From NCBI GenBank assembly GCA_965214095.1, contig OZ243938.1:1554197-1618196 (forward strand): a stretch of 64,000 nucleotides of DNA. Direction: 5' to 3'. Every line of letters starts with the position of its first letter. Position 1 is the stretch's first letter. The stretch is from Candidatus Poribacteria bacterium. Its GTDB lineage: Bacteria; Poribacteria; WGA-4E; WGA-3G. The notes under the pieces are model-generated. The model was not told the origin of the DNA. It worked only from the letters and a program-made list of their open reading frames with translations, and ran no database searches. Shown here piece by piece: positions 1,321-44,282 of the stretch. A program made the translations under genes and the position numbers.

Positions 1321-1836
1321 TTATGAGTTAGTACGTATCTCTTCTGCTGCTTGTAGAACGGCTTCAAGAATCTTTGTATATCCAGTGCACCGGCAGATGT
1401 TGCCACCAAGTGCAAACCTGAATTCTTCTTCAGTCCGATTTGGATTTTCGTCTACGAGTGCTTTTGATGCCATGATAAAACCGGGTGTGCAAAATCCGCA
1501 CTGGTAACCACCGGTATCAATAAATGCTTGTTGAATAGGATGGAGTTCACCTTCGCTGGCTAAACCTTCAATAGTAGTGATTTCTTTTCCAGAGGCGGTA
1601 ACGCCAAGTACCATACAGGATGTGACCGCTTTTCCATCAACGATGACGGTGCAGGCACCGCAATCTCCCGTGCTACATCCTTCTTTAGTTCCTGTCAAAC
1701 CGATTGTATCGCGAAGCACTGCAAGTAGCGTTTTGCGAGGTTCAACCAGCAAATCGTGTTCATCTCCATTAACTTTTAGACTGACAGGGTGTTTTGGCGA
1801 AGCTTGCAAGCCAAAACTTGTATTAGATCGTGACAT
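1321..1836 (-). CDS. [2Fe-2S]-binding small subunit of the Mo-hydroxylase (CoxS-like).
   Basis: It has the GCSTGDCGACTV and CGFCTPG...CRCTGY cysteine motifs. The second in-frame ATG (MSRSNTS...) has AAGGAG 6 nt upstream, so I chose it as the start. Confidence 0.9.
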   Translation of the reverse strand: MSRSNTSFGLQASPKHPVSLKVNGDEHDLLVEPRKTLLAVLRDTIGLTGTKEGCSTGDCGACTVIVDGKAVTSCMVLGVTASGKEITTIEGLASEGELHPIQQAFIDTGGYQCGFCTPGFIMASKALVDENPNRTEEEFRFALGGNICRCTGYTKILEAVLQAAEEIRTNS

Positions 1837-1897
1837 TTCTTCTCCTTGTTTCATAGTTACGATATAAAGAGGTTGCTAAGATACAAATGCAATTTCC

Positions 1898-2746
1898 TTA
1901 TGCTCTATCTATAGCGAGTTGTAGGGTTCGTCTTGTAAGGACATTAACCATTTCCTTGCGGTGTTCAGCGGAGCAGCGTAGATCGGATATTGGACTGGTT
2001 GCGGCTGCGGCTGCTTCACCTGCTTGATCCAGAAGTTCAGATGTGATTTCTTTACCTTTTAGGAGATCTTCCGCTTCAGTCGCTCGGATAGGAGTAGGAG
2101 CAACAGCGGCGAGTCCAATTCGTGCCTCAGTAATCGTTCCGTTGTCTATATTGACTGCGGATGCCACACCGATGAATGCCAAGTCCATGACTTCACGGAT
2201 TTTATGCTTGATATAGTGGGAACCAGATGCAGGACTCGGTAGACGGAATTGTGTAATGATCTCACCGGGTTTTAGGACAGTTTGTCCGGGGCCTGTGAAA
2301 AGTTCATTGATAGGTACTGAGCGTTCTCCATCCGTACTTGCGATGTCAACCTGTGCATCAGCAACGAGTAGACCAGCAACTGTATCTGCTGCAGGAGATG
2401 CATGCGCGATATTTCCTCCGATAGTTGCGAGGTTCCGAATCTGAATGGATCCAATTTCCGACGCGCCTTCTGCTAATGCTGTGTGGTGTTTTTGGACATC
2501 ATCGGACAATTCAACATCACGCACTTTTGTCATCGCCCCGATAGTGATACTACCATCTGAATCGGTTGTTATGTCATTGAGCCCTTGGATTTTCTGTAGG
2601 CTAATTACGGATTGCGGTGTTTCGGTATATGCCTTCATGCCGATAACAAGGTCTGTTCCGCCTGCAAGGAGTTGTGCGTGTTCTTCTGCAAACAAACGAG
2701 ACGCTTCCGCGAGGGTGGTCGGTTCAAAATATTCAAAACTTTTCAC
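1898..2746 (-). CDS. FAD-binding medium subunit of the Mo-hydroxylase (CoxM-like).
   Basis: It has the LLAGGTDL motif of the FAD-binding domain of molybdopterin dehydrogenases. GGAGG lies 5 nt upstream of the ATG. Confidence 0.85.
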   Translation of the reverse strand: MKSFEYFEPTTLAEASRLFAEEHAQLLAGGTDLVIGMKAYTETPQSVISLQKIQGLNDITTDSDGSITIGAMTKVRDVELSDDVQKHHTALAEGASEIGSIQIRNLATIGGNIAHASPAADTVAGLLVADAQVDIASTDGERSVPINELFTGPGQTVLKPGEIITQFRLPSPASGSHYIKHKIREVMDLAFIGVASAVNIDNGTITEARIGLAAVAPTPIRATEAEDLLKGKEITSELLDQAGEAAAAATSPISDLRCSAEHRKEMVNVLTRRTLQLAIDRA

Positions 2747-5201: not shown

Positions 5202-6038
5202 ATGTTTACTATTCAGTCCACTTTAACCGAAGAGGAAAAGTGGTCCTTTGATTTACATGGATTCCTCGTTTTGCGGAATGTCCTCTCAAGAGATCAAATT
5301 GATGAGATGTTAGCTGTGCTGCAGCATTGGCTAACAATAGATGAATCAGACATCCCACAACCATTACACCGTGGCAGACAAGAACCGTGTAAAACACATA
5401 TAAACCATATACAATATGGACATCGTCTGTTTCAAGACCTTGCCATGAACTCACATATTATTCGAGTTGTAGCAGGATTAATGATGAACGCACCGCGTCT
5501 CTTTCATAACAATTTCACGATGATGACAAGGCACGATTTTCCTCAACATTTTCATCGTGATGATAGCGGGTTTAAGTTTCCACCGGATTTCAGCAATCCG
5601 CATAACGATTATCAAGCAGGTGGAGGACATATCTATTGTAACCATATTGCAACATGGGTGGCATTGGTGGATGTGCCAGAGGAAACAGGATTTTGCCTTG
5701 TCCCCGGCAGTCATAAATCTCAATTTCAAACGCCAGAAGGTTTACCTGTCAAACACGATCCACCTACCTCAATCACGTTACCGATGCAGGCGGGAGATGT
5801 TGCCATTTTTTCAACGAACCTGCTCCATGATGCAAGCCCGTGGACAGAGGATTATCCTCGTATGAACATATTTCAACGGTATCAGTTGAGTGTGTATTTC
5901 AATGAAGGTGGAAAGGGAGGGTATCCGTTTGATGAATATCGTAATCAGATTTGTGAGGAACAGTATGAACTGGAATCGTTTTCTAAAGAACTGAAGGCAG
6001 TTGTTAAACGCATTTTACCAAATAGAGGTGGTGAATGA
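5202..6038 (+). CDS. Phytanoyl-CoA dioxygenase (PhyH)-family Fe(II)/2-oxoglutarate dioxygenase.
   Basis: The HxD...H arrangement (HFHRDDS ... VPGSHKS) and the overall PhyH-like sequence support this. GGAGA lies 6 nt before the ATG at 5202. Confidence 0.7.
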   Translation: MFTIQSTLTEEEKWSFDLHGFLVLRNVLSRDQIDEMLAVLQHWLTIDESDIPQPLHRGRQEPCKTHINHIQYGHRLFQDLAMNSHIIRVVAGLMMNAPRLFHNNFTMMTRHDFPQHFHRDDSGFKFPPDFSNPHNDYQAGGGHIYCNHIATWVALVDVPEETGFCLVPGSHKSQFQTPEGLPVKHDPPTSITLPMQAGDVAIFSTNLLHDASPWTEDYPRMNIFQRYQLSVYFNEGGKGGYPFDEYRNQICEEQYELESFSKELKAVVKRILPNRGGE

Positions 6039-6800: not shown

Positions 6801-7958
6801 TTAAGGTTTGTATATGGTTGTTTCAGGATAGAAACGTGCCCAAGCAAACCAGTAGATGTTGACAGAGGATAGCCGTTGTAAACGTTTCCCCTTGTGTTTA
6901 CCTGATGTCGCTTTACCAGTAATGAGATTCCATTCTGTACCGGAGTTATCTTTAGCGAAATGACCATCCGTGGATGTAAAAAGTATCACTTTATTGTCTA
7001 CTATACGCCTAAAAACAGAGGTTGCAAACGACTCTTTGTCGTGAAAAATTAACAAAGGCACACCGTTGACTGTATCGTTGAGTATAGCGGTTTTCGCAAA
7101 TTGTGTAAGCGGATAAGCACTATACTGTGTTTTATAATGGGCAACTGCACCAGGAGCACCATCTTGTCCATCAGCACCATCTTGTCCATCAGCACCATCT
7201 TGTCCATCAGCACCTGCCGCTCCATCTAATCCGTCCTCACCATGTTTTCGTTGGACTTGGACTCCGATCACAAGGGATTTATTAGGAAGTCTTTTATCGG
7301 TATATTTCATGCCACTTACACCAGTGTCTCGGCTGGCGTGATACCTTTGATATGTATCATGACTCAGACTTTCAACCATACGTCCCCTAAATGGAATTGA
7401 AAGAACTTTCGTATCAGGGTAATTTGTCATCCACTTATTCCACTCAATTTGTGGCATAGAAGCAAGAGGTTTTAATTGTTTGCCTTTCAACGGTCCCTGT
7501 ATCGCTTTTCCAGTGATGTGTGACCAGAGGGAACGCGTTTGATGATCGTACATTAACAGTGAATCTCTCCATAATTTTCCACTGACACCGAAGGTATAGG
7601 TTTCTCCTTCCAGTTCCCGACTATACACGATAGCCGTATTGCAAAGTGGTCACCATGTGGTAGCGATTTTCTCTCCACCGACAACATCGTTGACAATCTC
7701 ATGTCCGTTCAGTAGATAGATTGAGTATGCATGGCTCTCATCGTTGAATGTTACACCGATGACCGGTGCATCCATGTCTAATTTTGCTTTGGCAGCTGGT
7801 ACGAACTGTGGTTTTATGATTGCGGGGATTGCATCAAAACGGAGTAGGGTTTTGATCGGATCGTTGTCATATTCTGCTGCGGTTGCACAAAGGGTGGCGG
7901 AGCATAAAAGCGTGAGAATAAGGGTGTAATGTTTCATCATCTTTCCTTGCTTTTCCAA
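6801..7958 (-). CDS. DUF3179-family secreted protein. It is interrupted by a single in-frame TGA at the first Cys of the conserved CPLC motif (a selenocysteine candidate or a nonsense pseudogene). It also carries a collagen-like GADGQD repeat insertion.
   Basis: ORF 7650..7958 (which includes a signal-peptide-like N-terminus and ends ...VVGGEKIATTW-TGA) continues in the same frame as PLCNTAIVYSRELEGETYTFGVSGKLW...SLWSHITGKAIQGPLKGKQL, which is ORF 6801..7628. The only interruption is the TGA at 7650-7652. Confidence 0.6.
7161..7214. repeat. Perfect 18-bp tandem repeat x3 (ATCTTGTCCATCAGCACC) inside the DUF3179 coding sequence. It encodes (GADGQD)n collagen-like triplets.
   Basis: The three copies at 7161-7178, 7179-7196 and 7197-7214 are identical. 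Confidence 0.9.
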
Positions 7959-8513: not shown

Positions 8514-8795
8514 TTATCTGACACGTTTTCCTTTTATCTGAGCCAAAGCCATGAGAGCTTCAATCCGTTTCAGGTTACGAATTTCCAATTGATGCAACAA
8601 CGTATGATACTCGGAAAGTTCATCTTCGCTTATAGTTTGATTTTTACACTTGTGCAACAGATCCTGATAACGTATCTGATCTTTTTCCGGTAATCGTGAA
8701 TTTTCTTGAATGATCTCTAACAAGATGCTTTCCTGATTGGTATCCTGTGCTGAAGTCAATTCTTTGTTATAATTCTGTGATTTTGTATGTTTCAT
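8514..8795 (-). CDS. Hypothetical small protein (93 aa).
   Basis: It is an ORF of plausible size in an otherwise empty region. I recognised no motif. Confidence 0.35.
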   Translation of the reverse strand: MKHTKSQNYNKELTSAQDTNQESILLEIIQENSRLPEKDQIRYQDLLHKCKNQTISEDELSEYHTLLHQLEIRNLKRIEALMALAQIKGKRVR

Positions 8796-9185
8796 TTGCT
8801 TCCATCCTTCGCTGACAGTTCCGGTGAAAATTACGACGGTAACTGTCTGTGTGCGGGTATCAACCTATATTTTGACATACCTTTTTCGTTTAAGTATCGT
8901 AAAGCATTCGATTAGATCATTGTTGAAATAAGAGAAGTTGTATTTAGAGTTTATGCCACTAAACGTTAATAGTGCAGTAAGCGTTTACACTACCTTAAAG
9001 CAGACACAAACCATAAGACGCGAGTTGCTTTCATTGAAATTATACTATAGGAAACGCAAGGATTAACTAAACTCATGTTGGTATGCTGGTTTCTAACAAA
9101 ATACTTGCATCTTTTCGTATTTATGATATAATCTGAATCAAAATATTAGTTTATCCAATATCATATTGAGAGGAGATTGTTGCCT

Positions 9186-10064
9186 ATGCAAGCATTTGAG
9201 TATATTGATGCTAAAACAGTATCAGAAGCCGTAGCATTGCTTAATGAAAAAGGGGACAAAGCCCGATTACTCGCTGGTGGCACAGATCTTATTGTGCAAG
9301 CACGGGAGGGTAGAAGAGAACTTGATTGGATGATAGACATAAAATCCATTGCTGAAGTCAATGAGTTAGCCTATGATTCAGAGACAGGACTTACACTCGG
9401 TGCAGCAGTCCCGTGTTATCAGATCTATGCTGTTGATGCGATATGCGAAGCCTATCCCGGTTTAGTCGACGCAACTAAAATTATCGGTGGGACTGCTATA
9501 CAGGGACGCGCAGGCGTTGGTGGAAACCTCTGTAACGCTTCACCCGCAGCAGATTGTATTCCTCCACTAATTGTGCTAAATTCCACTTGTGTTATTGCTG
9601 GAGCAAACGGCGAACGTGAAATAGCAGTTGAAGATTTCTGCACAGGTCCCGGTCAGACAGCACTTGAAAAAGGTGAAATGTTGGTCTCTTTAAAAATACC
9701 CGCACCACCAAAAAATTCAAGCTCATATTATCTTAGATTTATTCCACGGAATGAAATGGACATTGCAGTCGTCGGTGCAGGTGCATCTGTCGTTTTAGAT
9801 GATGCGAAACAACGTATTGTCTCCGCACGAATCGCCCTCGGTGCTGTTGCTCCTACTCCATTATTTGCTGAAGAGGCAAGTGCGCTTCTTTCTGACAAAG
9901 AGATTTCTGATGATGTTATTGACGAAGCCGCACAAGCCGCACAAGCCATTGCACGTCCTATCAGCGATATGCGCGGAACTGCAGAACAACGTGCACACCT
10001 CGTTGGTGTATTGACACGACGCGCACTCAACGGAGCAATCCAAAGAGTCAGAGACGCAGCATAA
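9186..10064 (+). CDS. FAD-binding medium subunit of a second Mo-hydroxylase (CoxM-like paralog).
   Basis: It has the LLAGGTDL motif. AGGAG lies 10 nt before the ATG at 9186. An upstream in-frame TTG at 9177 is less likely to be the start. Confidence 0.85.
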   Translation: MQAFEYIDAKTVSEAVALLNEKGDKARLLAGGTDLIVQAREGRRELDWMIDIKSIAEVNELAYDSETGLTLGAAVPCYQIYAVDAICEAYPGLVDATKIIGGTAIQGRAGVGGNLCNASPAADCIPPLIVLNSTCVIAGANGEREIAVEDFCTGPGQTALEKGEMLVSLKIPAPPKNSSSYYLRFIPRNEMDIAVVGAGASVVLDDAKQRIVSARIALGAVAPTPLFAEEASALLSDKEISDDVIDEAAQAAQAIARPISDMRGTAEQRAHLVGVLTRRALNGAIQRVRDAA

Positions 10065-10124
10065 TTCTTAGCGAAATTATAACGGACAATATATAGTATC
10101 TAAAAGTAAAAGGAAACCGATATT

Positions 10125-10595
10125 ATGGCGAGAAGATCACACGTTCAAACCACAATCAATGACGAAACGGTGGAATTTCTCTGTGAACCACGCCAAAGTT
10201 TATTGGAAGTTCTCAGAGATGAACTCCACCTCACTGGGGCAAAAGAGGGGTGTAACAACGGTAATTGTGGTGCATGCAGTGTCATACTTGACGGTAGACT
10301 CGTCAATTCATGCCTGGTTTTAGGTGTTGAGACTGAAGGTAAATCTGTTGAGACCATAGAAGGTCTTGCCGAACCAGAAAAATTGCATCCGATTCAAGAT
10401 GCCTTTCTTGAGAACGCCGCACTTCAATGTGGTATATGCACTCCCGGATTTATCATGAGTGCAAAAGCATTATTAGAAAATAACCCAAACCCAACGGAAC
10501 ATGAAGTCCGATACTGGTTAGCGGGAAATTTGTGCCGCTGCACCGGTTACGATAAGATCGTTCGTGCTGTGCTTGATGCAGCCGCAGCTACATAG
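10125..10595 (+). CDS. [2Fe-2S] small subunit (CoxS-like paralog).
   Basis: It has the GCNNGNCGACSV and CGICTPG...CRCTGY motifs. Confidence 0.9.
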   Translation: MARRSHVQTTINDETVEFLCEPRQSLLEVLRDELHLTGAKEGCNNGNCGACSVILDGRLVNSCLVLGVETEGKSVETIEGLAEPEKLHPIQDAFLENAALQCGICTPGFIMSAKALLENNPNPTEHEVRYWLAGNLCRCTGYDKIVRAVLDAAAAT

Positions 10596-10607
10596 AAGGA
10601 GTGTCTT

Positions 10608-12863
10608 ATGTCTGAAAAGAAAGAATACAAAGTTATTGGAACGCGTCCTATCCGACATGATGGCGTAGATAAAGTCACAGGAAGGGCAATTTATGGGGCA
10701 GATTTTCAGATTACTGGACTCTTGCACGGTAGAGTGCTACGAAGTCCACATGCCCATGCACGAATCGTATCAATTGACACAAGTCGTGCTGAAGCACATC
10801 CAGGTGTTAAAGGTGTTGTGACAGCACAAGACCTACCCGCAGCAGAAGACAAAATGGCAGACCTTGGTGAAGGTGCGGTTAATCTCAAATATCTCTGTGA
10901 CAACATTTTCGCAAGTGATAAAGCACTTTATAAGGGACACGCTATCGCTGCAGTTGCCGCTACAAATCCGCATATTGCAGAAGAAGCATGCGAACTGATA
11001 GATGTTGAATATGAGGTGCTTCCACCGGTTTTAGAAGTGCGTCAAGCAATGGAACCTGATGCCCCTATCCTGCACGAAAACTTAACTACATCCTCACTGG
11101 GTGACACAGAAGATAAACCGACAAACATTGCCAGTCACTTACAACACAAGAAAGGCGACATAGAAAAAGGATTTGATGAAGCAGAAGTTGTTATTGAAAG
11201 AGATTTTGTTACAGGCACCGTCCATCAAGGTTATATTGAACCACACAACGCTACTGCACATTACAATCAAGATGGACAGTTAACAGTGTGGTGCAGCACA
11301 CAAGGTGCATTTACCGTCCGTGAACAACTTGCTGAAATCCTTCAGTATCCGGTTTCTAAAATCAAAGTTGTTCCATTAGAAATTGGTGGCGGATTTGGTG
11401 GTAAGATTAATGTCTACATTAAACCTGTTGCAGCACTCCTAGCGAAGAAAACCGGTAAACCTGTGAAAGTCTTGATGAACCGCGCTGATGTATTTGAAGG
11501 CACAGGTCCAACGCCTGCATCTTACATCACAATTAAAATTGGTGCGAAAAAAGACGGTAAAATCACTGCAGCACAAACCTCACTTGCCTTTGAAGCAGGT
11601 GCATATCCCGGTTCACCAGTCGGTGCAGGTGCAATGTGTGTCTTTGCTCCCTACAACATTGAAAATGTCCTCATTGATGGTTACGATGTTGTTGTGAATA
11701 AACCGAAGTCTGCTCCTTATCGTGCCCCAGGTGCAACGAACGCAGCCTTCGGCACAGAGACCGTTGTAGATGAACTCGCGGAGGAATTGAATATAGATCC
11801 GCTTGAGTTACGACTTATGAATGGTGCTAAAGAAGGTGATCGTCGTCCAGACGGTCCCGTTTATCCACGTATCGGTTTTATTGAAACACTTGAAGCGGCA
11901 AAGGAACATCCTCACTACACTTCCGCAAATGGTAAGAAATACCATGGACGTGGAATCGCTTCTGGTTTCTGGTTTAACATCGGTCTGGAATCCAGTGTGA
12001 CAATTAATGTTAATCCTGATGGCACTATTAACCTCGTTGAAGGTTCTACGGATATTGGTGGTACGCGTGCATCAATTGCAATGCAAGCTGCCGAAGTTCT
12101 CGGTATCCCTGCTGAATCGGTCAATCCGACTGTTGTTGATACCAATTCCATCGGTTATACTGCTGTCACTGGTGGCAGTCGAACAACTTATGCAACTGGT
12201 TATGCTGCGTATGAAGCGGCACAAGATGTAGTGAAACAGATGAAAGTACGCGCTGCTAAACTTTGGGAAGTTGATGAAGACAATGTACAGTTTGCTGATG
12301 GTGAATTCTCAAGTATCAACGGCAAAGAGGAACAGATTAGTTTCCGTGACTTATCCGCCAAACTTAGTCAAACTGGTGGTCCTGTTGTTGGCAGAGCTAC
12401 AATGAATCCTGCAGGTGCTGGTGGAGCATTCGCAACACATGTTGTTGATGTTGAAGTGGACGTAGAAACCGGTAAGGTTGAAATCCTACGTTACACTGCA
12501 ACGCAAGATGCTGGCAAAGCCATTCATCCCAGTTATGTTGAAGGACAAATCCAGGGAGGAGTCGTGCAAGGTATTGGTTGGGCATTGAATGAGGAATACA
12601 TTTACAATGACGAAGGCACAATGACAAACGCAAGTTTCCTTGATTACCGTATGCCAACCTGCTTAGATTTGCCGATGATTGATGCAGTTATCGTAGAAGT
12701 GCCGAATCCTGGACATCCGTATGGTGTACGTGGTGTAGGTGAAGTGCCGATTGTTCCGCCACCTGCAGCAATTGCTAACGCAATTTACGATGCCATCGGT
12801 ATCCGAATGACCGAACTGCCTATGTCGCCTGACCGCCTCTTAAAAGCGATGGGTAAAATATAA
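10608..12863 (+). CDS. Molybdopterin-binding large subunit (CoxL/XdhA-like paralog), 751 aa.
   Basis: The N-terminus GRAIYGADF, the GGGFGGK motif and full-length homology to feature 1..997 support this. GAAGGA RBS. Confidence 0.9.
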   Translation: MSEKKEYKVIGTRPIRHDGVDKVTGRAIYGADFQITGLLHGRVLRSPHAHARIVSIDTSRAEAHPGVKGVVTAQDLPAAEDKMADLGEGAVNLKYLCDNIFASDKALYKGHAIAAVAATNPHIAEEACELIDVEYEVLPPVLEVRQAMEPDAPILHENLTTSSLGDTEDKPTNIASHLQHKKGDIEKGFDEAEVVIERDFVTGTVHQGYIEPHNATAHYNQDGQLTVWCSTQGAFTVREQLAEILQYPVSKIKVVPLEIGGGFGGKINVYIKPVAALLAKKTGKPVKVLMNRADVFEGTGPTPASYITIKIGAKKDGKITAAQTSLAFEAGAYPGSPVGAGAMCVFAPYNIENVLIDGYDVVVNKPKSAPYRAPGATNAAFGTETVVDELAEELNIDPLELRLMNGAKEGDRRPDGPVYPRIGFIETLEAAKEHPHYTSANGKKYHGRGIASGFWFNIGLESSVTINVNPDGTINLVEGSTDIGGTRASIAMQAAEVLGIPAESVNPTVVDTNSIGYTAVTGGSRTTYATGYAAYEAAQDVVKQMKVRAAKLWEVDEDNVQFADGEFSSINGKEEQISFRDLSAKLSQTGGPVVGRATMNPAGAGGAFATHVVDVEVDVETGKVEILRYTATQDAGKAIHPSYVEGQIQGGVVQGIGWALNEEYIYNDEGTMTNASFLDYRMPTCLDLPMIDAVIVEVPNPGHPYGVRGVGEVPIVPPPAAIANAIYDAIGIRMTELPMSPDRLLKAMGKI

Positions 12864-13290: not shown

Positions 13291-16200
13291 ATGAATTTTC
13301 AAAGACACTGTGACCGCTATCTACAGAGAATACGTCAGACACAATCAGACCCAAATGCAACGCCTGAACTATCTTTACTCCCACATCTCAAGACGTTTCT
13401 GGAAGATGTTACAGCAAACGCAGACTTTTTTGACAACCCCAACATCAGATTCACACTGGAACCCAGAACAATCAACCAGATCGGACGACCCGACATCATC
13501 GCAACAGACGGATTGTTACCCATCGGCTATATTGAAGCGGAATCGGACAGCACAGACCTAAATAACCTAACAGGACACGCCGCACAACAGAACCAACGTT
13601 TTAGAGAAAACCTTGATAACTTCATTCTTACCAACTTCACCGATTTTGAGTTGTGGATAGATGGACAATGCAACAAAACAGCACGAATTTTAGAGAACAT
13701 TGATGATTTAGAGATACTATTAGAGCGGTTCCTAAACGCATCTATCCAAATCGGCACACCGGAAGCACTCGCAAAATACCTTGCAAGACGGACCCGAGAA
13801 CTCCAAACACAGATCGCAACGACACTCACCGATGAGGACAGTGAAACCTACAGAATGTTCAAAGCGTTCAAGGAAACGTTGCTCGCGACACTCACTCCTA
13901 ACGATTTCTCGGATATGTATGCACAAACTCTCACGTATGGGTTATTCGCTGCACGCTGCACATTGCCGAATGCAACAAATTTTTCACGTCACACCGCAGT
14001 TGGCACACTCCCAAGATCAAATCCGTTTCTCGTCCAACTTTTTTATCATGTCGCCTCTCCGAGACTTGAGACGAATGTCACTTACATTCTGGATGACATT
14101 GCAACGCTTCTCCAAAACGTTCCAACAGCCATGCTCCGTACAGCATTTACTGCAAGAAATCCACTTGAAGACCCGGTTATCCATTTTTATGAGACGTTCC
14201 TAAAAGAATATAATCCGAAACTCCGCTTTGACCGCGGGGTTTTTTATACGCCGCCACAGGTTATCTCCTACATTGTTCGCTCAGTGGATTCCTTGCTCAA
14301 AACAAAGCTCAACAGACCCGATGGACTTGCCGATGACGACACGCTTATCCTCGATCCTGCCACGGGTACGGGTGGATTTCTGTTGACAGTGCTTGACCAT
14401 ATCCGAGAATATGTTACAGAAAATTATGGCACCGGGGATTGGAACCAGTATATAAACGCAAATTTAGTAAAACGGATTTTTGGATTTGAACTGCTTGTCG
14501 CACCGTATACGATTGCACATCTGAAGTTGAGTCTGTTTCTGCAGGCGCAAGGGTGGCGCACCAATGAACGTCTCGGAGTTTATCTTACCAATGCTTTGGA
14601 ACAACCGGATGAAATGCAGGCTCCCTTGCCTTTTGCTGCATTTATCTCTGATGAAGCAAACGCTGCACTCTCTGTGAAAAGGGACGCCCCTGTCCTCGTC
14701 ATCCTCGGCAATCCACCCTATAAGCAACATTCTGCCAACCCAAGCCGAGTCGGTAACGATTTAACTTTTATCGGTGGACTCATGGAAGATTACAGCCAGG
14801 TAGATGGAGAACCACTTGGTGAAGTCAACCCAAGAGCACTCCAGGATGACTATGTGAAATTTATCCGGTGGGCACAGTGGCGAATTGACAGAAACGGGGA
14901 GGGCGTTATCGGTTATATTGTTAACAACAATTTTCTTGATGCACCTACAGCTCGCGGCATGCGGCAAAATCTGTTAGACAGTTTCAACACAATATACGTA
15001 CTCAATTTACATGGCAGTAATAGAAGAACGGAAGCGGTGCCAACGGGACAGAAAGATGAAAATGTCTTTGATATTATACAAGGGGTTTGCATTCTGCTAT
15101 GTGTCAAAGAACGCGATAATCTTGATTCTACAAAGGTCTATCACGCTGATATGTGGGGATCCCGAGAAGAGAGATATAGGACACTTTCAGAGACCGATGT
15201 ACAATCTACGACGTGGTGTGAACTACAACCGGCATCACCTTATTACCTTTTTGTACCGCAAGAAATGGACTACAGTGCTGAATATGAAAGCAGATGGAAA
15301 ATTACAGACATCTTTCAAACTAGTTCAATTGGAATTGTCACCGCGCGAGATAAATTGACAATTCATTGGACTCCTGAAGAGATAAGGGAAACGGTAACCG
15401 ATTTTGTCACACTTTCTATTGATGATGCCAGGGAAAAATATAACTTAAGAAAGGATAGCCAAGATTGGAAAATCCATCTTGCCCAAGCCGATCTCCAAAA
15501 TAATCCCAATGCGGAAAAACATGTATCACCAATTTACTACCGACCGTTTGATACACGTTGGACATATTATACTGCGCACTCGCGTGGATTTCATTGTAGA
15601 CCTCGCCCTGAGATTATGCCACACTTGCGCAGGAAAAACCTTGCTCTCAGCGTCTGTCGTATTGTCAAAAGTCCCGTATGGCAACATGCCTTGATTTCCG
15701 ATAAAATTACAGATAATTGTTATATCTCAAACACAACCAGTGAATCTGCACATGTGTTTCCGCTCTACCTATATCCAGATTCAGAGGCATTATTAGGCTC
15801 AACAGAACCTGAACTCAATTTCAAACCCGAATTTCTCACTGCCCTTTCGGAGACGTTACAACTCCCACAAACCCCACCGTTTGGACTCTCCGAAGGTGTC
15901 ACACCAGAGGAGATTCTCGCTTATATCTATGCTGTGCTTTATAGTCCTACCTATCGTGAACGGTATTATGAATTTCTAAAATACGATTTTCCGCGTATCC
16001 CTTTACCTAAAGATATTGATCATTTCCGCAAACTCGCATCGTTGGGGCAGGAATTGATTAATTGGCATCTGTTGAAGGAAGTGCAGATTCCAGTTCGTCA
16101 TCGCTTTGAAGGTGAAGGTAACAGTGTTGTCTCAAGACACAGCTATGAAGATGGGAACGTGTGGATTAACGACACACAATATTTTACGGATGTGCCTGCG

Positions 16201-16371
16201 GAAGTATGGGAATATAAAATAGGAGCATATCAGGTATGTGAGAAGTGGTTGAAGGATAGGAAGGGAGAAACGTTGAGTCATGCGGAGGTTCGTCAGTATC
16301 GTTCTATTTTGGTTGCTGTTGCGGAGACGTTGCGGGTTGTGAGGGAGATTGATGGGGTGCTTGAATTTTAA
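13291..16371 (+). CDS. Type IIL/IIG (MmeI-like) restriction-modification enzyme with an N-terminal nuclease-like domain, a gamma-class N6-adenine DNA methyltransferase and a C-terminal target-recognition domain.
   Basis: Motif I is DPATGTGGFL and motif IV is VLVILGNPPY. The C-terminal YKIGAYQVCEKWLKDRKGETLS block is typical of type ISP/IIL specificity domains. The N-terminal GRPDIIATDG...IGYIEAES...NFILTNFTDFELW parallels the MmeI nuclease-domain layout. 1026 aa. Confidence 0.7.
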   Translation: MNFQRHCDRYLQRIRQTQSDPNATPELSLLPHLKTFLEDVTANADFFDNPNIRFTLEPRTINQIGRPDIIATDGLLPIGYIEAESDSTDLNNLTGHAAQQNQRFRENLDNFILTNFTDFELWIDGQCNKTARILENIDDLEILLERFLNASIQIGTPEALAKYLARRTRELQTQIATTLTDEDSETYRMFKAFKETLLATLTPNDFSDMYAQTLTYGLFAARCTLPNATNFSRHTAVGTLPRSNPFLVQLFYHVASPRLETNVTYILDDIATLLQNVPTAMLRTAFTARNPLEDPVIHFYETFLKEYNPKLRFDRGVFYTPPQVISYIVRSVDSLLKTKLNRPDGLADDDTLILDPATGTGGFLLTVLDHIREYVTENYGTGDWNQYINANLVKRIFGFELLVAPYTIAHLKLSLFLQAQGWRTNERLGVYLTNALEQPDEMQAPLPFAAFISDEANAALSVKRDAPVLVILGNPPYKQHSANPSRVGNDLTFIGGLMEDYSQVDGEPLGEVNPRALQDDYVKFIRWAQWRIDRNGEGVIGYIVNNNFLDAPTARGMRQNLLDSFNTIYVLNLHGSNRRTEAVPTGQKDENVFDIIQGVCILLCVKERDNLDSTKVYHADMWGSREERYRTLSETDVQSTTWCELQPASPYYLFVPQEMDYSAEYESRWKITDIFQTSSIGIVTARDKLTIHWTPEEIRETVTDFVTLSIDDAREKYNLRKDSQDWKIHLAQADLQNNPNAEKHVSPIYYRPFDTRWTYYTAHSRGFHCRPRPEIMPHLRRKNLALSVCRIVKSPVWQHALISDKITDNCYISNTTSESAHVFPLYLYPDSEALLGSTEPELNFKPEFLTALSETLQLPQTPPFGLSEGVTPEEILAYIYAVLYSPTYRERYYEFLKYDFPRIPLPKDIDHFRKLASLGQELINWHLLKEVQIPVRHRFEGEGNSVVSRHSYEDGNVWINDTQYFTDVPAEVWEYKIGAYQVCEKWLKDRKGETLSHAEVRQYRSILVAVAETLRVVREIDGVLEF

Positions 16372-24071: not shown

Positions 24072-24200
24072 ATATCTTACCTTTCAACAATTTGGAAGGT
24101 GAAGTAGTTCTTTGAAAGTTAAATAGTGAACGTGACGTGCCTATTAATAGCTTGTGAGTACGCTTCAATTATTTGATGATGTACTTCAAAACTTTTGTGG

Positions 24201-25752
<1,552 letters not shown>

Positions 25753-25864
25753 CAATTAACAAGGATATTCTCACACGATTTCCTTGTTCAAACGCTCTGA
25801 ATCTTACAAGGCACTTACGACTTCCTATTTAACTTTCAATTGACTCTTTTTCTACCTTCTCTAA

Positions 25865-25938
25865 GGGCTTATAGCTCAGAAGGTTAGAGCGCGCGCCTGA
25901 TAAGCGCGAGGTCCCTGGTTCGATTCCAGGTAAGCCCA
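25865..25938 (+). tRNA. tRNA-Ile (anticodon GAU) in the 16S downstream spacer.
   Basis: GGGCTTATAGCTCAG...CCTGATAAG...GGTTCGATTCC...TAAGCCCA has a 7-bp acceptor stem and a GAT anticodon. Confidence 0.9.
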
Positions 25939-26795: not shown

Positions 26796-26922
26796 TACTC
26801 TGTCCATTTTTTGTATTGTCCGTTGGGGAGAGAAACGACACCCGACTTTCTTTATGATAAGGGGCTGCATGTTGGGTGTCGTCCCTCTACCCCATTGAAC
26901 AACGTTATTGAAGGAGATAATC

Positions 26923-28983
26923 GTGCCAGACAAAACCACTTCAAACCTAATACTTAGACCACTTAACGACACAGATGTTACAACTTGGGAACTCCCCGAA
27001 GGTGCAATTACCCGATTGGGACGGGGTAGACTGGTGAATATATCATTTTCACCTGATGGGAAGTATCTTGCTGTAGCAACTCCTATCGGATGTTGGTTGT
27101 ATGACCTACCCACGCTTACCCCTCGCTCATTGATTGAAACGGAACGCGGAATGCTTACGAAAATTGCTTTTTCTCGTGATGGACGGTGGATTGCTACGGG
27201 CAACGCGGATGGTATCGTTAAGGTATGGGACACAGATACCTCACAGTGTCTTGCCAAAATAGATTACCACAAGATAATGGGAGGACCGTTGGGTTATTGT
27301 GATTTGAACTTTTCGGAGGATGGCAAATATCTTGCTGTGTCCAGCTCCAGTGGGTGTGCTGTCTTCACTTGGCACACAAATACTGATGAACCCATAGCAC
27401 AGTTCTCGATTGATGCAGCAGATACGAATGGAAAACGCGTTCCTATCTACTTATCTCCTAACAGGAATATGTTTGCATACGTATCTTCTGTGTCTCCCAT
27501 GACTACAATAATGATTAAAGATATTGACACCGGTGAACATATTACAGACTATAGTTGTCCAGCACTTTATGCATTCACAGGTCTTGTATTTTCACCGTGT
27601 GGTCAGTATCTTGCATCTGTACATCAGAACGGCAATGTGCAGGTGCGTAATATTGACAATGCCACATCGGAGATAGTACATACCTTATCAGATGCGACTT
27701 CTGTGAGACTTGCGTATACGTCTGTTGGTGCATTGCGTATTGCTGAAATTCATGAGGAAAAAGTTGTAATTTGGGATACGGAGCAGTTTCAGAAGGTAGG
27801 TACATTGGAATTTGAGAGACACGGAAGGAAAATATTTCGATTTTCGGACGATGGAACACATTTCGTAATCGCTAATTCACGCGAATTCCAAGTATGGAGG
27901 GATGGCGGATTGATTAAAGTTGTGTCTATGTCTGCTGCACATATAGGTATTATTAGATGGGTACGTTTTTCTCAACAGAAAAAGACACTAATTAGTGGAC
28001 ACGGACCAAGTAATATGTTCTGGTCTTTAGAGGATCACCAGTTACAACATATCTTCTATCCCAAAACAGAGGGTTACTTTTTGGGAAGAAGTAGCGTCTT
28101 ATCACCTTGTGAAGAATCTCTTGCTACCCCTATTTTAGGTATCCGCAATAGCAACGACATCGCTATTACAATTTGGCATATTACATCTGGCACCTTAATT
28201 GCTGAGATGACTGGACATGAAAGACATGTCGTCCAGATGGCGTATTCACCGTCTGGAGACTTTTTAGTTAGTGCATCGTCACTTGGTGAGCTCATTGTAT
28301 GGGACACGCAGTTTTGGGAAAAGCGTCACGAACTTATAGGACATACTAAAGATATTACGAGTGTCTTTTTTCACCCTGATGGGAAGCAGCTTGTCACCGC
28401 GTCCAATGACAGGACTGCACGAGTCTGGAATGTTGAGAATGGTGAACAGGTCGGTTCACTTCCTTTAGACACAATCATAAAAGATATATCCCTTTATAGA
28501 GGTGGATCCCAAGAAATCCAGGCGTTAATAAAATGGAAACAGCAATTGGAGTCTGAGCAGTCAACTGATCAAACCATTTGTTCTGATATCCGGTTTTCTC
28601 CGTGCGGTACACTCATCGCCGGTAGGTTATATCGGCGCGGTAAATGGAAGAAGAAAATGGCAAATGAGATTAGACTTTGGGATGCAGCAACCTTAGAAAT
28701 ACGAATGACGATACTGCTCCCTGCAGATGATTCCCTTACACGTGCGCTTACATTTTCACCATGCAGCCGCTACCTTGCCTCTGGAACGTGGTGGAAAAAA
28801 GGTTTAGAGAAGATGCGAATAAGGTTATGGGAGGTTGCGAGTGGGGAAAATATTGCTACCTTCTGGGGACATCCAACAGATATTCATGACCTGGCATTTT
28901 CACCTGATGGTTCGCTTCTCGCAAGTGGTAGTTATGATGGGACTATCCTCTTGTGGGACATGAAACCTTTTATTAACTCTTAG
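26923..28983 (+). CDS. WD40 beta-propeller repeat protein, array member W1.
   Basis: The start is a GTG 7 nt after AAGGAG. It has the N-terminal LNDTDVTTWELPEGAITRLGRG module, multiple FSPDG/FSPCG...LASG..DG.I.LWD blades, and the C-terminus ILLWDMKPFINS. Confidence 0.8.
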   Translation: MPDKTTSNLILRPLNDTDVTTWELPEGAITRLGRGRLVNISFSPDGKYLAVATPIGCWLYDLPTLTPRSLIETERGMLTKIAFSRDGRWIATGNADGIVKVWDTDTSQCLAKIDYHKIMGGPLGYCDLNFSEDGKYLAVSSSSGCAVFTWHTNTDEPIAQFSIDAADTNGKRVPIYLSPNRNMFAYVSSVSPMTTIMIKDIDTGEHITDYSCPALYAFTGLVFSPCGQYLASVHQNGNVQVRNIDNATSEIVHTLSDATSVRLAYTSVGALRIAEIHEEKVVIWDTEQFQKVGTLEFERHGRKIFRFSDDGTHFVIANSREFQVWRDGGLIKVVSMSAAHIGIIRWVRFSQQKKTLISGHGPSNMFWSLEDHQLQHIFYPKTEGYFLGRSSVLSPCEESLATPILGIRNSNDIAITIWHITSGTLIAEMTGHERHVVQMAYSPSGDFLVSASSLGELIVWDTQFWEKRHELIGHTKDITSVFFHPDGKQLVTASNDRTARVWNVENGEQVGSLPLDTIIKDISLYRGGSQEIQALIKWKQQLESEQSTDQTICSDIRFSPCGTLIAGRLYRRGKWKKKMANEIRLWDAATLEIRMTILLPADDSLTRALTFSPCSRYLASGTWWKKGLEKMRIRLWEVASGENIATFWGHPTDIHDLAFSPDGSLLASGSYDGTILLWDMKPFINS

Positions 28984-29118
28984 ACATTCCTTATCAATTC
29001 ATTTATAGCATTGCGATACCTGTTGCATTACACAACTCTGTCAGTCAATTTTACATAATATATCAGAGCATGAAGTTACCGAGTCTTGCATCTCATATAC
29101 CAATAAAGGAGATAATTT

Positions 29119-31089
29119 TTGAAAAACAGAGAACCCATAACACCTTCAATTAGACCTATCCACGACACGGATGTAACAACATGGGAACTCCCCGAAGGGG
29201 CAATTGCCCGGTTGGGGCGGGGTGGAATTATGGGTAATATCATTCACGCACCTGATGGAAAGCACTTTGTTGTTCCAAGTTCCATAGGAGTCTGGTGGTA
29301 CAATATATCTACAATGACACCTAATGCACTAATGGACACAGACAGAGGATACATTACTGCTATCTCATTTTCTCCAAATGGTAAAAGGCTTGCAACAGGT
29401 GATGGAGACGGTCTGGTCAAAGTATGGGATGTACAGAATGGTGTCAACATCGCGCAGATGGATCGGGATGAAAATGAGAAACCCTACCATTGTGTTTCCC
29501 GATTCGCATTTTCATCTGATAGTCAGTTTATTGCAGCTTCCAGTTTCCGTGATTATATCCTATACATCTGGAACACTGAAACGGGCAAACAAATTGGCAA
29601 ATTCCACGATAATACCAATTATAGGTGGTGGCCTACTCTGCTACGTCCTATTGCCTTCTCTCCGGATGGCAGTTTGATAGCGTGTACAATGCCTGATGAG
29701 GGTCTATTCGCACATGCAGATCGTCGTGGAACGATCCGTACTCCCAATCATTCTTCCAACTATATTTCTGTATGGAATATAAAAACAAGTGAACAAATAG
29801 CATGTATTACAGAACATCCTGATTTTGTTAATAGTATTGTCTTTTCTCCTTGTGGAAAGTTTCTTATCTCTGGAGGAAGAGATGGAACAGTGAGGGTGTG
29901 GTCAGTTGAAACTTGGAAGATGCTCCATTCATTTAATAATCTTGGAACAGAACGGAAACAACTCTTCTATTCACCTAAAAGTGAATTGTTTGCTAAAGAA
30001 GCCTCTAAGGATAATTTCACTGTATGGAATGTATATGAAGGTCAAAAAACCGACACATACCTTGAAGAACATCGAAATATTCAAATCCCATATTCCACAA
30101 AGGAAGCACCATTTATTGTAGCCGATGAGAACGAATTTAGAGTGTGGAAAGTCGGTGATACTCAACCACATACTTTTGTTCATTCACACATAGAATTCTC
30201 TGATTCAGTAGTATTCACAGAGGATGGAAAAACACTCGCAGGGGCAATTCGAGAAAATGGTATTATGTTGTGGGATATGACTAAACCATCATTTCCGCTA
30301 ACACATTTGAATATATCTGGTAACAAGAAAATTGTTTCTTCGTTTGGTTCAGAAAAGATTTCTGTTATGGGTATAGAGGGGAACGCAGCTAAAGTATGGG
30401 TGTCTGGAGAGAGTCAACCAAGACATATATTCACACTTCCTAACGGAAAAGAAGAAGCGACATCAGCAGCATTCGCACAGGTAGAGAACCTGTTAGTTTG
30501 CAGTGGAACACAAAATAAACTCTACATATGGAACACTCAAACGAAAGAAATATTACATACACTCACACCAGATTTATCGGATGAAGATTCCATAGCATAT
30601 TTGGAATTTAGTCCAGATGCAAAACTACTTTTCAGTGTCTCGGGACGGGGTCCCAGAACCTATCTATGGCAAGTTGAAACAGGAGAGATAATTGATACTT
30701 TCACCTATAATACCAGAGTCATTACTTTTTCCCCATGTAGTTCAATAATAGCTTGTGCAGTACCCCCAGGAATTATATTATGGGATGTAAATCGTTCTGA
30801 AACCGTCATCGCAATGCCTGAGAAGGAAGAAGATTTTCTTGTAGCATTGTCATTTTCTCCATGCGGAAGATATTTAGTTTCCGGTTCAAATTGGCAGCAA
30901 CGTATGAATATAAAGAAAGTGGCTATTCGGTTATGGGAGGTTGCAAGTGGCAAAAACATTGCCACTTTTAGAGGACACCCAACTGATATTCAGTCATTGG
31001 CTTTCTCCCCAGATGGTAAACTGTTAGCCAGCGCAAGTTTTGATGGTACCATCCTCCTCTGGGATATGAAACCCTTTATTAACTCTTAG
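29119..31089 (+). CDS. WD40 repeat protein, array member W2.
   Basis: The start is a TTG 7 nt after AAGGAG. It has the conserved N- and C-terminal modules (IHDTDVTTWELPEGAIARLGRG ... ILLWDMKPFINS). Confidence 0.8.
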   Translation: MKNREPITPSIRPIHDTDVTTWELPEGAIARLGRGGIMGNIIHAPDGKHFVVPSSIGVWWYNISTMTPNALMDTDRGYITAISFSPNGKRLATGDGDGLVKVWDVQNGVNIAQMDRDENEKPYHCVSRFAFSSDSQFIAASSFRDYILYIWNTETGKQIGKFHDNTNYRWWPTLLRPIAFSPDGSLIACTMPDEGLFAHADRRGTIRTPNHSSNYISVWNIKTSEQIACITEHPDFVNSIVFSPCGKFLISGGRDGTVRVWSVETWKMLHSFNNLGTERKQLFYSPKSELFAKEASKDNFTVWNVYEGQKTDTYLEEHRNIQIPYSTKEAPFIVADENEFRVWKVGDTQPHTFVHSHIEFSDSVVFTEDGKTLAGAIRENGIMLWDMTKPSFPLTHLNISGNKKIVSSFGSEKISVMGIEGNAAKVWVSGESQPRHIFTLPNGKEEATSAAFAQVENLLVCSGTQNKLYIWNTQTKEILHTLTPDLSDEDSIAYLEFSPDAKLLFSVSGRGPRTYLWQVETGEIIDTFTYNTRVITFSPCSSIIACAVPPGIILWDVNRSETVIAMPEKEEDFLVALSFSPCGRYLVSGSNWQQRMNIKKVAIRLWEVASGKNIATFRGHPTDIQSLAFSPDGKLLASASFDGTILLWDMKPFINS

Positions 31090-31227
31090 ACATTCCTTAT
31101 CAATTCATTTATAGCATAGCATAACAATACCGGTTGGATTACACAACTCTATCAGTCAATTTCACATTACATATCGTAGTGCGAAGTTACCGAACCTCGC
31201 AAGCCATAAAACAATAAAGGAGAATTG

Positions 31228-33222
31228 ATGGAAACCACAAAAACACAAACAACCACCCCTTTTCACTTTGATGATAGCAAAGTATGTAATTGGACACTTC
31301 CCGAAGGTGCAATCGCTCGATTAGGACGTGGAAGTGTACGTGATATGGAATTTTCACCGGATGGACAGTACTTCGCTGTTGGAACAACAATAGGACTTTG
31401 GATGTATCAACTTTCAACACTTTCCCCAATCACGCTCTGGGAAACTGATAGAGGATATATTGAAAGTGTTACATTCTCACCTGATGGTCGATGGATTGCT
31501 TCAACTACACTTAACGAAGCACTCAGGGTGTGGGATATCCAGAACAAGAGTTGTATTACTGAGATGGAATTTAAGGAGAAACATACCAATTTCGGAATTG
31601 ACAAACCTGTTTTTTCCGCAGATGGAGACTGTCTTGTTGCATTTAATGTGAACAACAAGGTTTATTTTTTGTGTCCTCGCACCGGTACGAAAATGAGAGA
31701 AACAGAAATCAAAGTAAATGGAACAGAAAACGAAACAATTGATGGGATCTATCCCACTTGTTTTTCTCCGGATATCAGTTTGTTGGCAGGTGCGTGTTGC
31801 GATCATAGAAACCGTACCGTTGAATTCATTGCACTGTGGGATGTGGAGACAGGTGAACAAGTCACTCGTCTTGAATGGACTGAAAGATGGGGTAACCTCT
31901 GTTTTTCACCGTGTGGAAGGTTTCTTGCTGCCGGCAGTTCAGAGGGTAAAATTCATGTGTGGGATGTGGAAAGTGGAAGTCTGATTGCAAGCTATTCTGA
32001 CTATGGAGATGCACGGATGACACCACATTATCCCTCGGAAGGTGGATTGATTGCAACTATGGTTTTTCCATCTGAACCCAAAATTGAAGTCTGGGATTTA
32101 GAAAGAAACGAAAAAATGGCGACGTTCGAAAAAGGGAGCAAACATAGTTTTGTCCGTTTTTCGAAAGATGACACAAAATTTGCATATACTGATGATGGGG
32201 AAATCAAATTCTGGACAAAAGAAAAACCCATCTCGAAATTACTGCCGAGTATTAAAGGACATACACGTCCAGTCAGTTCATTAGTCTATGCAACAGATGA
32301 GAAAACGCTTGTGGCTACGTACTGGGGGTGGAAAGCACTTTTTTGGGATGTTCCACGCAGACGAGGACAACGTCCAACTGGAACAGATTTACCCACAAGT
32401 AAAACACTTCATCTCTATCAGGACAATGAGGGGAAAGTATATGCAACGGGTGGAGACAGTGCCTACCTAAGAGTGTGGAAGAATGGCAATAGTGAATCAA
32501 TCACCGATATTCCAATACATGAGCAAAAACTGCAATCAATCACAGGTAGTGAGGCGTTCGCATTAACAGCAGACCGGATAGCGCGGGCAGATAGAGATCA
32601 TAACATCTATGTATGGATGTGTAAATCGAAATCAAATAGTAGTGATAATAAAAAGGACTGGATATTGCAAGTAAATCTGACCGGACATACAGAATACATT
32701 GAAGCTTTGGCATTTAGTCCTGACGCAAAACAACTCGTGAGTATATCGCGAGATAAAACTGCCAGATTATGGGATGTTGAATCAGGAGAACAGATCATAC
32801 AACTACCTTTAACCCCGCCTTCAAGTCCCAGACGATACCGAAGTTATGACAGAGGTATTACATTTTCACCTCGTGGAGACTTAATTGCAGGTGGACAGTG
32901 GGGAGAGATAGTGCTGTGGAATGCGACAGATGGAAAAATCTATAGGACAATTCCACAACCAGAAGGAAATCAGCGACCGATTACATTATGTTTTTCACCA
33001 TGTGGGGAGTATCTCCTTTCCGGTTCATGGTGGCAAGGTGGTTTGCAGAAAGTGCCTATCCGTTTGTGGAAAGTAGCGACAGGTGAGAATATTGCCACGT
33101 TTTCTGGACACACTACAGACGTTCAGTGTTTTGCATTTAATCAGGATTGCACTGTTCTCGCCAGCGGTGGATATGATGGGGTAATATTCCTCTGGGATTT
33201 GAAACCGTATATCAATTCATAA
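31228..33222 (+). CDS. WD40 repeat protein, array member W3.
   Basis: The ATG follows AAGGAG. It has the N-terminal motif NWTLPEGAIARLGRG and the C-terminus IFLWDLKPYINS. It is a close paralog of W4. Confidence 0.8.
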   Translation: METTKTQTTTPFHFDDSKVCNWTLPEGAIARLGRGSVRDMEFSPDGQYFAVGTTIGLWMYQLSTLSPITLWETDRGYIESVTFSPDGRWIASTTLNEALRVWDIQNKSCITEMEFKEKHTNFGIDKPVFSADGDCLVAFNVNNKVYFLCPRTGTKMRETEIKVNGTENETIDGIYPTCFSPDISLLAGACCDHRNRTVEFIALWDVETGEQVTRLEWTERWGNLCFSPCGRFLAAGSSEGKIHVWDVESGSLIASYSDYGDARMTPHYPSEGGLIATMVFPSEPKIEVWDLERNEKMATFEKGSKHSFVRFSKDDTKFAYTDDGEIKFWTKEKPISKLLPSIKGHTRPVSSLVYATDEKTLVATYWGWKALFWDVPRRRGQRPTGTDLPTSKTLHLYQDNEGKVYATGGDSAYLRVWKNGNSESITDIPIHEQKLQSITGSEAFALTADRIARADRDHNIYVWMCKSKSNSSDNKKDWILQVNLTGHTEYIEALAFSPDAKQLVSISRDKTARLWDVESGEQIIQLPLTPPSSPRRYRSYDRGITFSPRGDLIAGGQWGEIVLWNATDGKIYRTIPQPEGNQRPITLCFSPCGEYLLSGSWWQGGLQKVPIRLWKVATGENIATFSGHTTDVQCFAFNQDCTVLASGGYDGVIFLWDLKPYINS

Positions 33223-33316
33223 CATTCCTCGTCAATTCTCTTGGTCAAATTCGCAATTCATCTCAACGTGCAAGATTAACGAATCTCGCCATTTATTAGA
33301 GTAAGGAGACATCATT

Positions 33317-35326: not shown

Positions 35327-35344
35327 AATACAAGGAGATGTTTT

Positions 35345-37354: not shown

Positions 37355-37449
37355 ATATGCCTTGTCATTTCTCTTGGTCAATTTCTTGAACAACTTAATT
37401 TGTAACATTAACGACTCTCGCCATTTATAAGTGTAAAGGAGACATCATT

Positions 37450-39642: not shown

Positions 39643-39774
39643 AGCCATTCATGTCAATTCACCGATAGTATATCGGCTGCTGCTGGCATAGTGAACTCAC
39701 CCAACCAACTTCGTAATAAGCATGCTAGACACTTAAACCTCAAACACTTTTTGGCAACAACAGGAGGCACTTTT

Positions 39775-41811: not shown

Positions 41812-41887
41812 CATATATATGCATCAGATTGAACTAAAGTATTCTTTAGTGTCCAAACAAGCTGTAGCAATTGCTGAGGAGATTATT

Positions 41888-43879: not shown

Positions 43880-44017
43880 CGACTTGTGCTAAAAAACTAA
43901 ATGTTAAGTATTGATTCACACATTCAGGTCCTTTTGTCCGTATTTCTTTCACTTAAGATGCTCTTTAGTCCCGTATGAAGATAAAAAACAAATAGGGTAA
44001 TTTGACTTCAAAGTCCA

Positions 44018-44100: not shown

Positions 44101-44282
44101 GTTTAATAAATTAATCTTCATTAGGGACGATATGCTTATAGTGTTAATGCTATTAAATGTAAAAACCAACAAGACAGAATGTTAACTGGCACAAGTCGTA
44201 AATTAGCATATATGTGCATCAGATTGAACTAAAATATTCTTTAGTGTCCAAACAAGCCGTAGCAATTGCTGAGGAGATTATT

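Follow-up and report, generated by a model that had tools for sequence, protein, structure and literature searches.

An in-frame UGA in a Poribacteria DUF3179 gene as a probable selenocysteine codon with a conserved SECIS-type hairpin

The window, that is, the whole 64,000-nt stretch of Poribacteria DNA analysed here, carries on its minus strand two ORFs, 7650..7958 and 6801..7628, that share one frame and are joined by a TGA codon at 7652..7650, and the question this locus raises is whether that TGA ends a broken gene or is read as selenocysteine (Sec). Based on comparative sequence evidence, we consider the TGA to be a genuine Sec codon with its own conserved RNA hairpin at a probability of roughly 90%, because the codon is conserved across phyla, is replaced by Cys in homologs, and is followed by a hairpin that covaries and that has been lost in most Cys forms.

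A DUF3179 gene divided by one in-frame TGA

The initial annotation had proposed that the two same-frame ORFs rebuild one DUF3179 protein, and this was borne out: the joined frame comprises 379 codons, and the 379-aa read-through product matched PF11376 (DUF3179) with an E value of 7e-75 and 252.6 bits (Pfam cut-off 27), the match consisting of two stretches with a collagen-like insert between them. The gene and the residues at issue are as follows.

7940..6801, minus strand: full-length candidate DUF3179 selenoprotein gene, 379 codons plus TAA, defined by frame, sequence and the PF11376 match.
7652..7650, minus strand: UGA codon 97, predicted to encode Sec (U97 of U97-P-L-C100), judged by conservation of the TGA column and Cys in relatives.
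7641..7643, minus strand: TGC, encoding Cys100, which pairs with residue 97 in the UxxC motif and is Cys in all 81 distinct Sec-form rows.

The minus-strand codons around the TGA read ACC ACA TGG TGA CCA CTT TGC AAT ACG GCT ATC GTG TAT AGT CGG GAA, placing the TGA in the protein context GGEKIATTW-[TGA]-PLCNTAIVYSRE with ATTW-U-PLC as the read-through motif, the Cys of which was invariant in the 83 aligned Sec forms. Upstream, the ATG at 7940..7938, which is preceded by AAGGA at 7948..7944, probably serves as the start codon, and the hydrophobic N-terminus MMKHYTLILTLLCSATLCATAAE suggests that the product is exported; the assignments of both start codon and signal peptide were read from the sequence. 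TGA is otherwise used as a normal stop, as had been noted initially, and terminates 5 of the 35 long ORFs in the window, for example at 6036..6038, which indicates that TGA is not generally reassigned in this genome. Moreover, the TGA at 7652..7650 appears to be the sole in-frame TGA in the window that unites two ORFs of one recognisable protein family, and among the other same-frame ORF pairs listed for the 64-kb window there was no convincing single-gene case.

Between the two homologous halves of the protein lies a collagen-like G-x-D repeat (GADGQD, 18-nt unit, 3.3 perfect copies; 7155..7226, minus strand, residues ~234-264), which matched Pfam Collagen weakly at 24.5 bits, under the 27.2-bit cut-off. 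Its copy number varies among the close Poribacteria relatives P0001, P0002, P0005 and P0010, and the insert is missing from P0030, P0044 and P0006; therefore it looks like a rapidly evolving linker.

Several other features of the window were recorded along the way. A 1026-aa ORF at 13291..16371 on the plus strand combines an N6 DNA methylase domain with a Type ISP C-terminal specificity domain, and is thus a Type ISP-like restriction-modification enzyme, adjoining a lower-GC segment (16-20 kb, 38.6% GC). The stretch 24194..25938 contains a complete 16S rRNA gene and, after it, tRNA-Ile(GAT), with protein-coding ORFs resuming from 26175; tRNA-Ala, 23S and 5S genes were not detected downstream of it by Rfam, so the 16S gene appears unlinked from 23S. 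The plus-strand region 26908..61973 is occupied by a head-to-tail array of ~16 ORFs of 650-750 aa, and the three that were scanned encode multi-bladed WD40 beta-propeller proteins; eukaryote-like repeat proteins are very abundant in Poribacteria, where COG2319 counts are 50-120 per genome (PMC5649159 Table S4).

Conservation of the TGA codon and its cysteine counterparts

By scanning one genome per species, we obtained 80 homologous loci with 35-91% amino-acid identity, from Poribacteria (L001-L036 and L039), Latescibacterota (L037), Entotheonella (L038) and Chloroflexota (L040-L080), in which the tblastn matches cover query residues on either side of the TGA. The codon between W and P-L-C was TGA in 79 of the 80, the 80th ending at a contig edge, and neither TAA nor TAG was found at this column in any of the 80 loci. 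Three of these loci (L052, L058 and L066) carry two Sec-type DUF3179 paralogs apiece, the second one also with TGA, and two more Sec-type paralogs were found later; altogether, 85/85 Sec-type genes have TGA, spanning Poribacteria, Latescibacterota, Entotheonella, Dehalococcoidia and Anaerolineales. Among 81 distinct sequences, the entropies at the three codon positions were 0.76/0.66/1.56 over the 50 codons upstream of the TGA, which contain no stop codon in any of them, and 0.60/0.41/1.36 over the 50 codons downstream. This indicates that both flanks of the TGA evolve as coding sequence.

Next, an exhaustive HMMER search (E up to 0.001) collected 9046 family representatives, of which 147 diverse ones were aligned. 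At the column of the TGA, Cys was found in 128 of the 133 representatives with a residue there, the others having Ser (4) or Asp (1), and the second Cys of the CPLC motif was kept in 117 of the 133. The CPLC motif had initially been described as invariant: a conserved Cys does stand at the TGA position, as an alignment of homologs had been expected to reveal, but the motif is not strictly invariant. A further 14 representatives begin just past the TGA column, as expected of additional Sec forms. Taken together, Poribacteria have the Sec form almost without exception, it also occurs widely in sponge-associated Chloroflexota and other phyla, and the recurrence of TGA at the same column, together with the covarying hairpin described below, upholds the initial proposal of a Sec codon.

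The full-length Cys form P0006 (locus L083, 60% identity) comes from a Poribacteria genome and has TGT at the Sec codon, while its gene order equals that of the window: DUF3179, a convergent SDR gene, PhyH, GFO/IDH/MocA, and FAD- and 2Fe-2S-binding subunits. At this TGT-bearing gene (L083 8301) the SECIS-like hairpin is still perfect, with 7/7 pairs. This points to a one-base change from Sec to Cys that took place recently inside the Poribacteria clade, or alternatively to a pre-adapted Cys form. Two genomes of a single metagenome (L086 1774..4134 and L087 1802..4179) each have a Sec-type gene, called in two pieces, with a Cys-type paralog directly downstream. The window itself aligned to a MAG labelled Candidatus Poribacteria with 82.5% nucleotide identity across 10.8 kb and conserved gene order; its best protein matches bear the same name, and WD40 gene arrays like those it contains are typical of this phylum. 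A different kind of variant was seen in one Anaerolineales locus (L073), where an in-frame TAA ~45 codons past the Sec codon breaks the conserved LWSQL-GEAV stretch; it is likely a true nonsense mutation or an assembly error, and is the only such case among 83 genes.

These genes are systematically mis-annotated. When the read-through sequence was used in a protein search, the best ~120 clusters showed 55-94% identity, and almost all of them were N-terminally truncated, starting MYSRE... or MYDHQT..., the same split as in the window gene. More than 100 of the 120 best clusters consist of the C-terminal fragment alone, some of them named 'DUF3179 domain-containing protein', and NCBIfam was found to have no DUF3179 model, for the Sec form or otherwise. 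The main value of the present analysis lies in annotation: gene callers cut the DUF3179 gene at the UGA and the window gene stands unannotated as a selenoprotein.

The hairpin downstream of the UGA and rival readings of the codon

A 7-bp hairpin, CGGCUAU-CGUGU-AUAGUCG, had been pointed out downstream of the UGA, and it was located just as described, with a spacing inside the published bacterial SECIS range. Its parts, all on the minus strand, are listed below.

7636..7618, minus strand: predicted bacterial SECIS-type hairpin within the coding sequence, identified by covariation, RNAalifold and frozen synonymous sites.
7636..7630, minus strand: 5' arm, CGGCUAU.
7629..7625, minus strand: apical loop, CGUGU, with G at 7628.
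7624..7618, minus strand: 3' arm, AUAGUCG.
7637..7649, minus strand: 13-nt spacer from the UGA to the hairpin, coding P-L-C-N plus the first base of a Thr codon.

The hairpin begins at the 14th nt after the UGA and has seven pairs, one of them G.U, and its apical loop begins 20 nt past the UGA (13-nt spacer plus 7-nt arm), a register identical in 83/83 sequences. Across an alignment of 83 Sec-type sequences, running from 9 nt before the TGA to 60 nt after it (alignment A2), the helix formed by columns 26-32 with columns 38-44 has standard pairs in 98.2% of cells, and compensatory changes were found at 5/7 pairs; pairs 29:41 alternate between CG and GC, and pairs 30:40 among UA, CG and AU. The covariation score was 0.373 compared with 0.127 in shuffles, with 0/500 shuffles reaching the observed value, and sliding the 3' partner by 1-3 columns lowered pairing to 23-48%. 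RNAalifold, run on its own, returned the same helix and no other. Compensation proceeds through residue changes, such as Ala(GCU)...Ser(AGC), Gly(GGA)...Ser(UCC), Gly(GGC)...Ala(GCC) and Ala(GCC)...Gly(GGC), which indicates that RNA structure makes two residues of the protein co-vary. This SECIS-forced amino-acid covariation (Ala/Ser, Gly/Ser, Gly/Ala, Ala/Gly) is unusually clean in the 83-sequence alignment, which could seed a covariance model.

Synonymous sites within the stem hardly vary: column 27, a four-fold site, was G in 73 of 81 sequences (0.55 bit), compared with 1.2-2.0 bits at four-fold sites outside the stem; the stem Tyr codon was TAT in 79/81, whereas another Tyr codon splits into 43 T and 33 C, and third codon positions vary freely in the spacer, unlike in the stem. 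Loop position 2 (column 34) was G in 83/83 sequences, followed by U in the window, an invariance that is partly confounded by protein constraint, since this G also opens a Val or Gly codon. More generally, some stem and loop bases, for example the G of the Val codon, are also under protein-sequence constraint.

We compared the hairpin with the published bacterial SECIS model (PMC13188914, Fig. 2A), whose limits are 3-9 nt for the apical loop, 4-16 bp for the upper stem, 16-37 nt from the UGA to the loop, and an MFE no higher than -7.5 kcal/mol, with a G required among the first two loop positions. The 5-nt loop, 7-bp stem, loop G and 20-nt spacing all fall within these limits. The MFE of the window sequence depends on the length folded, being -6.8 kcal/mol for the UGA plus 38 nt and -13.7 for 66 nt, relative to the model threshold of -7.5, and the minimal hairpin is weak (-6.8 kcal/mol) because of its one G.U pair; among the homologs, 74/83 pass -7.5 kcal/mol. 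The initial expectation that the downstream RNA would fold as a SECIS thus held for loop, stem, spacing and loop G, with the MFE marginal; the single-sequence folding energy was not unusual and no better than that of shuffles (z = -0.15), and so the evidence for the hairpin is comparative rather than thermodynamic. Rfam at gathering thresholds reported only 16S rRNA and tRNA-Ile in the window. At the DNA level, the helix has 7/7 pairs in the two of eight Cys-form genes that are closest to the Sec clade, and 3-5/7 in the other six. Likewise, in L086 and L087 the Sec paralog has 7/7 pairs, and the adjoining Cys paralog 4/7 and 3/7, respectively.

Consistent with a Sec codon, the Sec trait is present in the phylum Poribacteria, as known from the literature at the phylum level only. 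Slaby et al. 2017 (Table S4, PMC5649159) list SelA (COG1921), SelB (COG3276) and SelD (COG0709) in Poribacteria bin44, bin70 and SAG WGA-3G, and report SelA and SelB as enriched in sponge symbionts; Sec-type group 4 hydrogenases from the phylum have been reported in a 2026 study (PMC13582414). In our own search of the window and roughly 1 Mb of homologous loci, no tRNA-Sec was detected by ARAGORN, which was run on the window and 60 of the 80 loci, and tblastn with E. coli SelA, SelB and SelD gave no match in the window or the 80 loci.

Three other readings of the UGA were weighed. The first, which we regard as improbable, is that the UGA is recoded to something other than Sec, either to Cys through a SelB- and SECIS-dependent tRNA of the tRNA(ReC) type, or to Trp or another residue through near-cognate read-through. 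SECIS-using, UGA-reading tRNAs that resemble tRNA(ReC) have indeed been discussed for MAGs with Sec-type hydrogenases (PMC13582414), but SelA and SelD, the enzymes that make Sec, are among those reported in Poribacteria genomes (PMC5649159), and the literature treats DUF3179 as a selenoprotein family, while tRNA(ReC) is without support here.

The second, which appears even less probable, is a conserved split gene, in which translation would stop at UGA97 and a second polypeptide would start from the GTG at 7628 or a downstream ATG, yielding two subunits, with the hairpin acting in termination-reinitiation or mRNA stability. Although an in-frame GTG does lie 7 codons downstream and ORF callers routinely annotate the fragment 6801..7628, TGA is the stop codon in every case, TAA and TAG being absent, and it sits exactly on the conserved Cys of a CxxC motif, in a beta-strand/loop region of a domain modelled with pLDDT ~97. 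The residues PLCNTAI between the stop and the putative restart are, moreover, conserved as coding sequence, the hairpin matches the SECIS model, and the Cys forms are single polypeptides.

Finally, a TGC- or TGT-to-TGA change that has just broken an intact gene, whether by recent pseudogenisation or by sequencing error, would need only one base, would fit both the splitting of the gene by gene callers and the databases holding the C-terminal fragment only for nearly all close relatives, and has a parallel in the real-looking TAA nonsense codon elsewhere in L073, which shows that lesions occur, but the same TGA stands in 85 independent genes of several phyla with flanks under purifying selection and a covarying hairpin, and since neither random mutation nor error can hit the same codon in lineage after lineage, this explanation, put forward initially as the alternative to a Sec codon, is refuted.

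Under the Sec reading, one mRNA would encode the 379-residue DUF3179 protein, and the 7-bp hairpin, by placing its loop 20 nt downstream of the UGA, would be bound by SelB, the elongation factor dedicated to Sec, loaded with Sec-tRNA(Sec), so that UGA97 would be decoded as Sec rather than as termination, in a presumably SelB-dependent manner. The product, probably exported, would have two homologous beta-rich halves, with U-P-L-C in the first half, at the place where most relatives have C-P-L-C. Its Sec would most likely supply the reactive group in a selenenylsulfide/thiol redox couple, or else act as a metal ligand.

Fold, possible function and comparison with known systems

AlphaFold2, applied to a Cys ortholog with 147 aligned sequences, predicted an all-beta structure with a pLDDT of 92.5 and a pTM of 0.88. 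The N- and C-terminal halves of the protein are homologous (hhalign probability 99.9%, E 1e-34), and the CPLC motif is confined to the first half. No solved structure was found to be related by sequence to the DUF3179 protein. With Foldseek, only weak partial matches over ~90 residues were obtained, to Rieske-type ferredoxins (probability ~1, target TM 0.5-0.6, E 0.02-0.2), and Pfam gave no Rieske signal for the protein; a 'Rieske-like' fold of DUF3179 is thus no more than a lead. The motif and current knowledge of UxxC selenoproteins point to a redox-active selenenylsulfide couple, or else a metal ligand, as the most likely role of U97-x-x-C100 in a protein that is probably exported.

A more far-reaching picture would join these elements: DUF3179 would be secreted and built from two Rieske-like beta domains in tandem, the Sec/Cys-x-x-Cys loop of the first domain would replace the Rieske cluster-binding loop and form a metal or redox centre containing selenium, and the Sec form would be the default in Poribacteria and shared among unrelated sponge-symbiont phyla, namely Chloroflexota, Latescibacterota and Entotheonella, perhaps via horizontal transfer. 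We regard this combined picture as speculative and, taken as a whole, unlikely. If true, a Rieske-like Sec DUF3179 protein would be one client protein explaining the SelA/SelB enrichment in sponge symbionts. Among the three papers found to mention DUF3179, there was no experimental report showing selenium in any DUF3179 polypeptide.

The gene neighbourhood was also considered. Two separate gene sets for xanthine-dehydrogenase/CO-dehydrogenase-type subunits (FAD-binding, 2Fe-2S and molybdopterin-binding) flank the DUF3179 gene at 1321..2746 (minus strand) and 9177..12863 (plus strand), the former being conserved in position in other Poribacteria loci, and a 93-aa ORF without a Pfam match at 8514..8795 (minus strand) recurs upstream of DUF3179 in the Poribacteria loci L015, L017, L022, L035 and L039. 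A family-wide function read from such neighbours was rejected, the synteny with SDR, PhyH, GFO/IDH/MocA and xanthine-dehydrogenase-type genes being found within Poribacteria only. In five related Dehalococcoidia loci (L047, L049, L053, L060 and L063), an arylsulfatase gene lies directly downstream of the Sec-type DUF3179 gene on the same strand, and at L084 168..1172 one Cys-form gene shares its first 4 nt with an FGE-sulfatase gene. A sulfatase link was likewise rejected as a family-wide feature, as it was seen in no other loci and may be due to chance in sulfatase-rich symbionts.

As to known systems, the initial annotation had held that a Sec-containing DUF3179 protein would be new, and this proved incorrect: DUF3179 (PF11376) is already catalogued as a selenoprotein family with the motif UxxC/T in two reviews, PMC9312934 (2022) and PMC13188914 (2026), both of which cite Zhang & Gladyshev 2007 (NAR 35:4952) for it. 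From the table order, we would guess that DUF3179 is the OS_HP1 of the 2007 paper. The family, the motif and the Sec position are thus on record, and the present locus represents no new mechanism and no new selenoprotein family. The window protein shares with the catalogued members the Pfam domain, a Sec that is first in UxxC and aligns to the CPLC Cys, and a downstream SECIS hairpin within the ORF, and differs from them in nothing essential, the window copy having the collagen-like G-x-D insert between its halves. It comes from a Poribacteria-type genome, a phylum absent from the text of the two reviews, and the review text on DUF3179 selenoproteins mentions neither sponges nor Chloroflexota. 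What the analysis adds is modest, namely the spread of the Sec form, a very well supported SECIS of fixed register, and the systematic truncation in databases, and it would attach a concrete selenoprotein to the published enrichment of the Sec machinery in sponge symbionts.

Compared with the SECIS/SelB system of the E. coli fdhF type, of which the bacterial SECIS consensus model is a generalisation (PMC13188914), the window hairpin is likewise a stem-loop directly 3' of the UGA within the ORF, with a 5-nt loop, G then U early in the loop, a 7-bp upper stem and 20-nt spacing. It differs from the fdhF element in having no sequence similarity to it and no evident lower stem or bulged U, and the minimal hairpin, at -6.8 kcal/mol, is slightly weaker than the -7.5 of the model unless more flank is folded. 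With the thioredoxin-fold UxxC/CxxU selenoproteins (DsbA-like, thiol:disulfide interchange), the DUF3179 protein has in common a Sec/Cys pair two residues apart and the existence of homologs that contain Cys, and it too is likely to be located outside the cytoplasm, whereas its AlphaFold model, all-beta and composed of two homologous halves, is predicted not to be thioredoxin-like.
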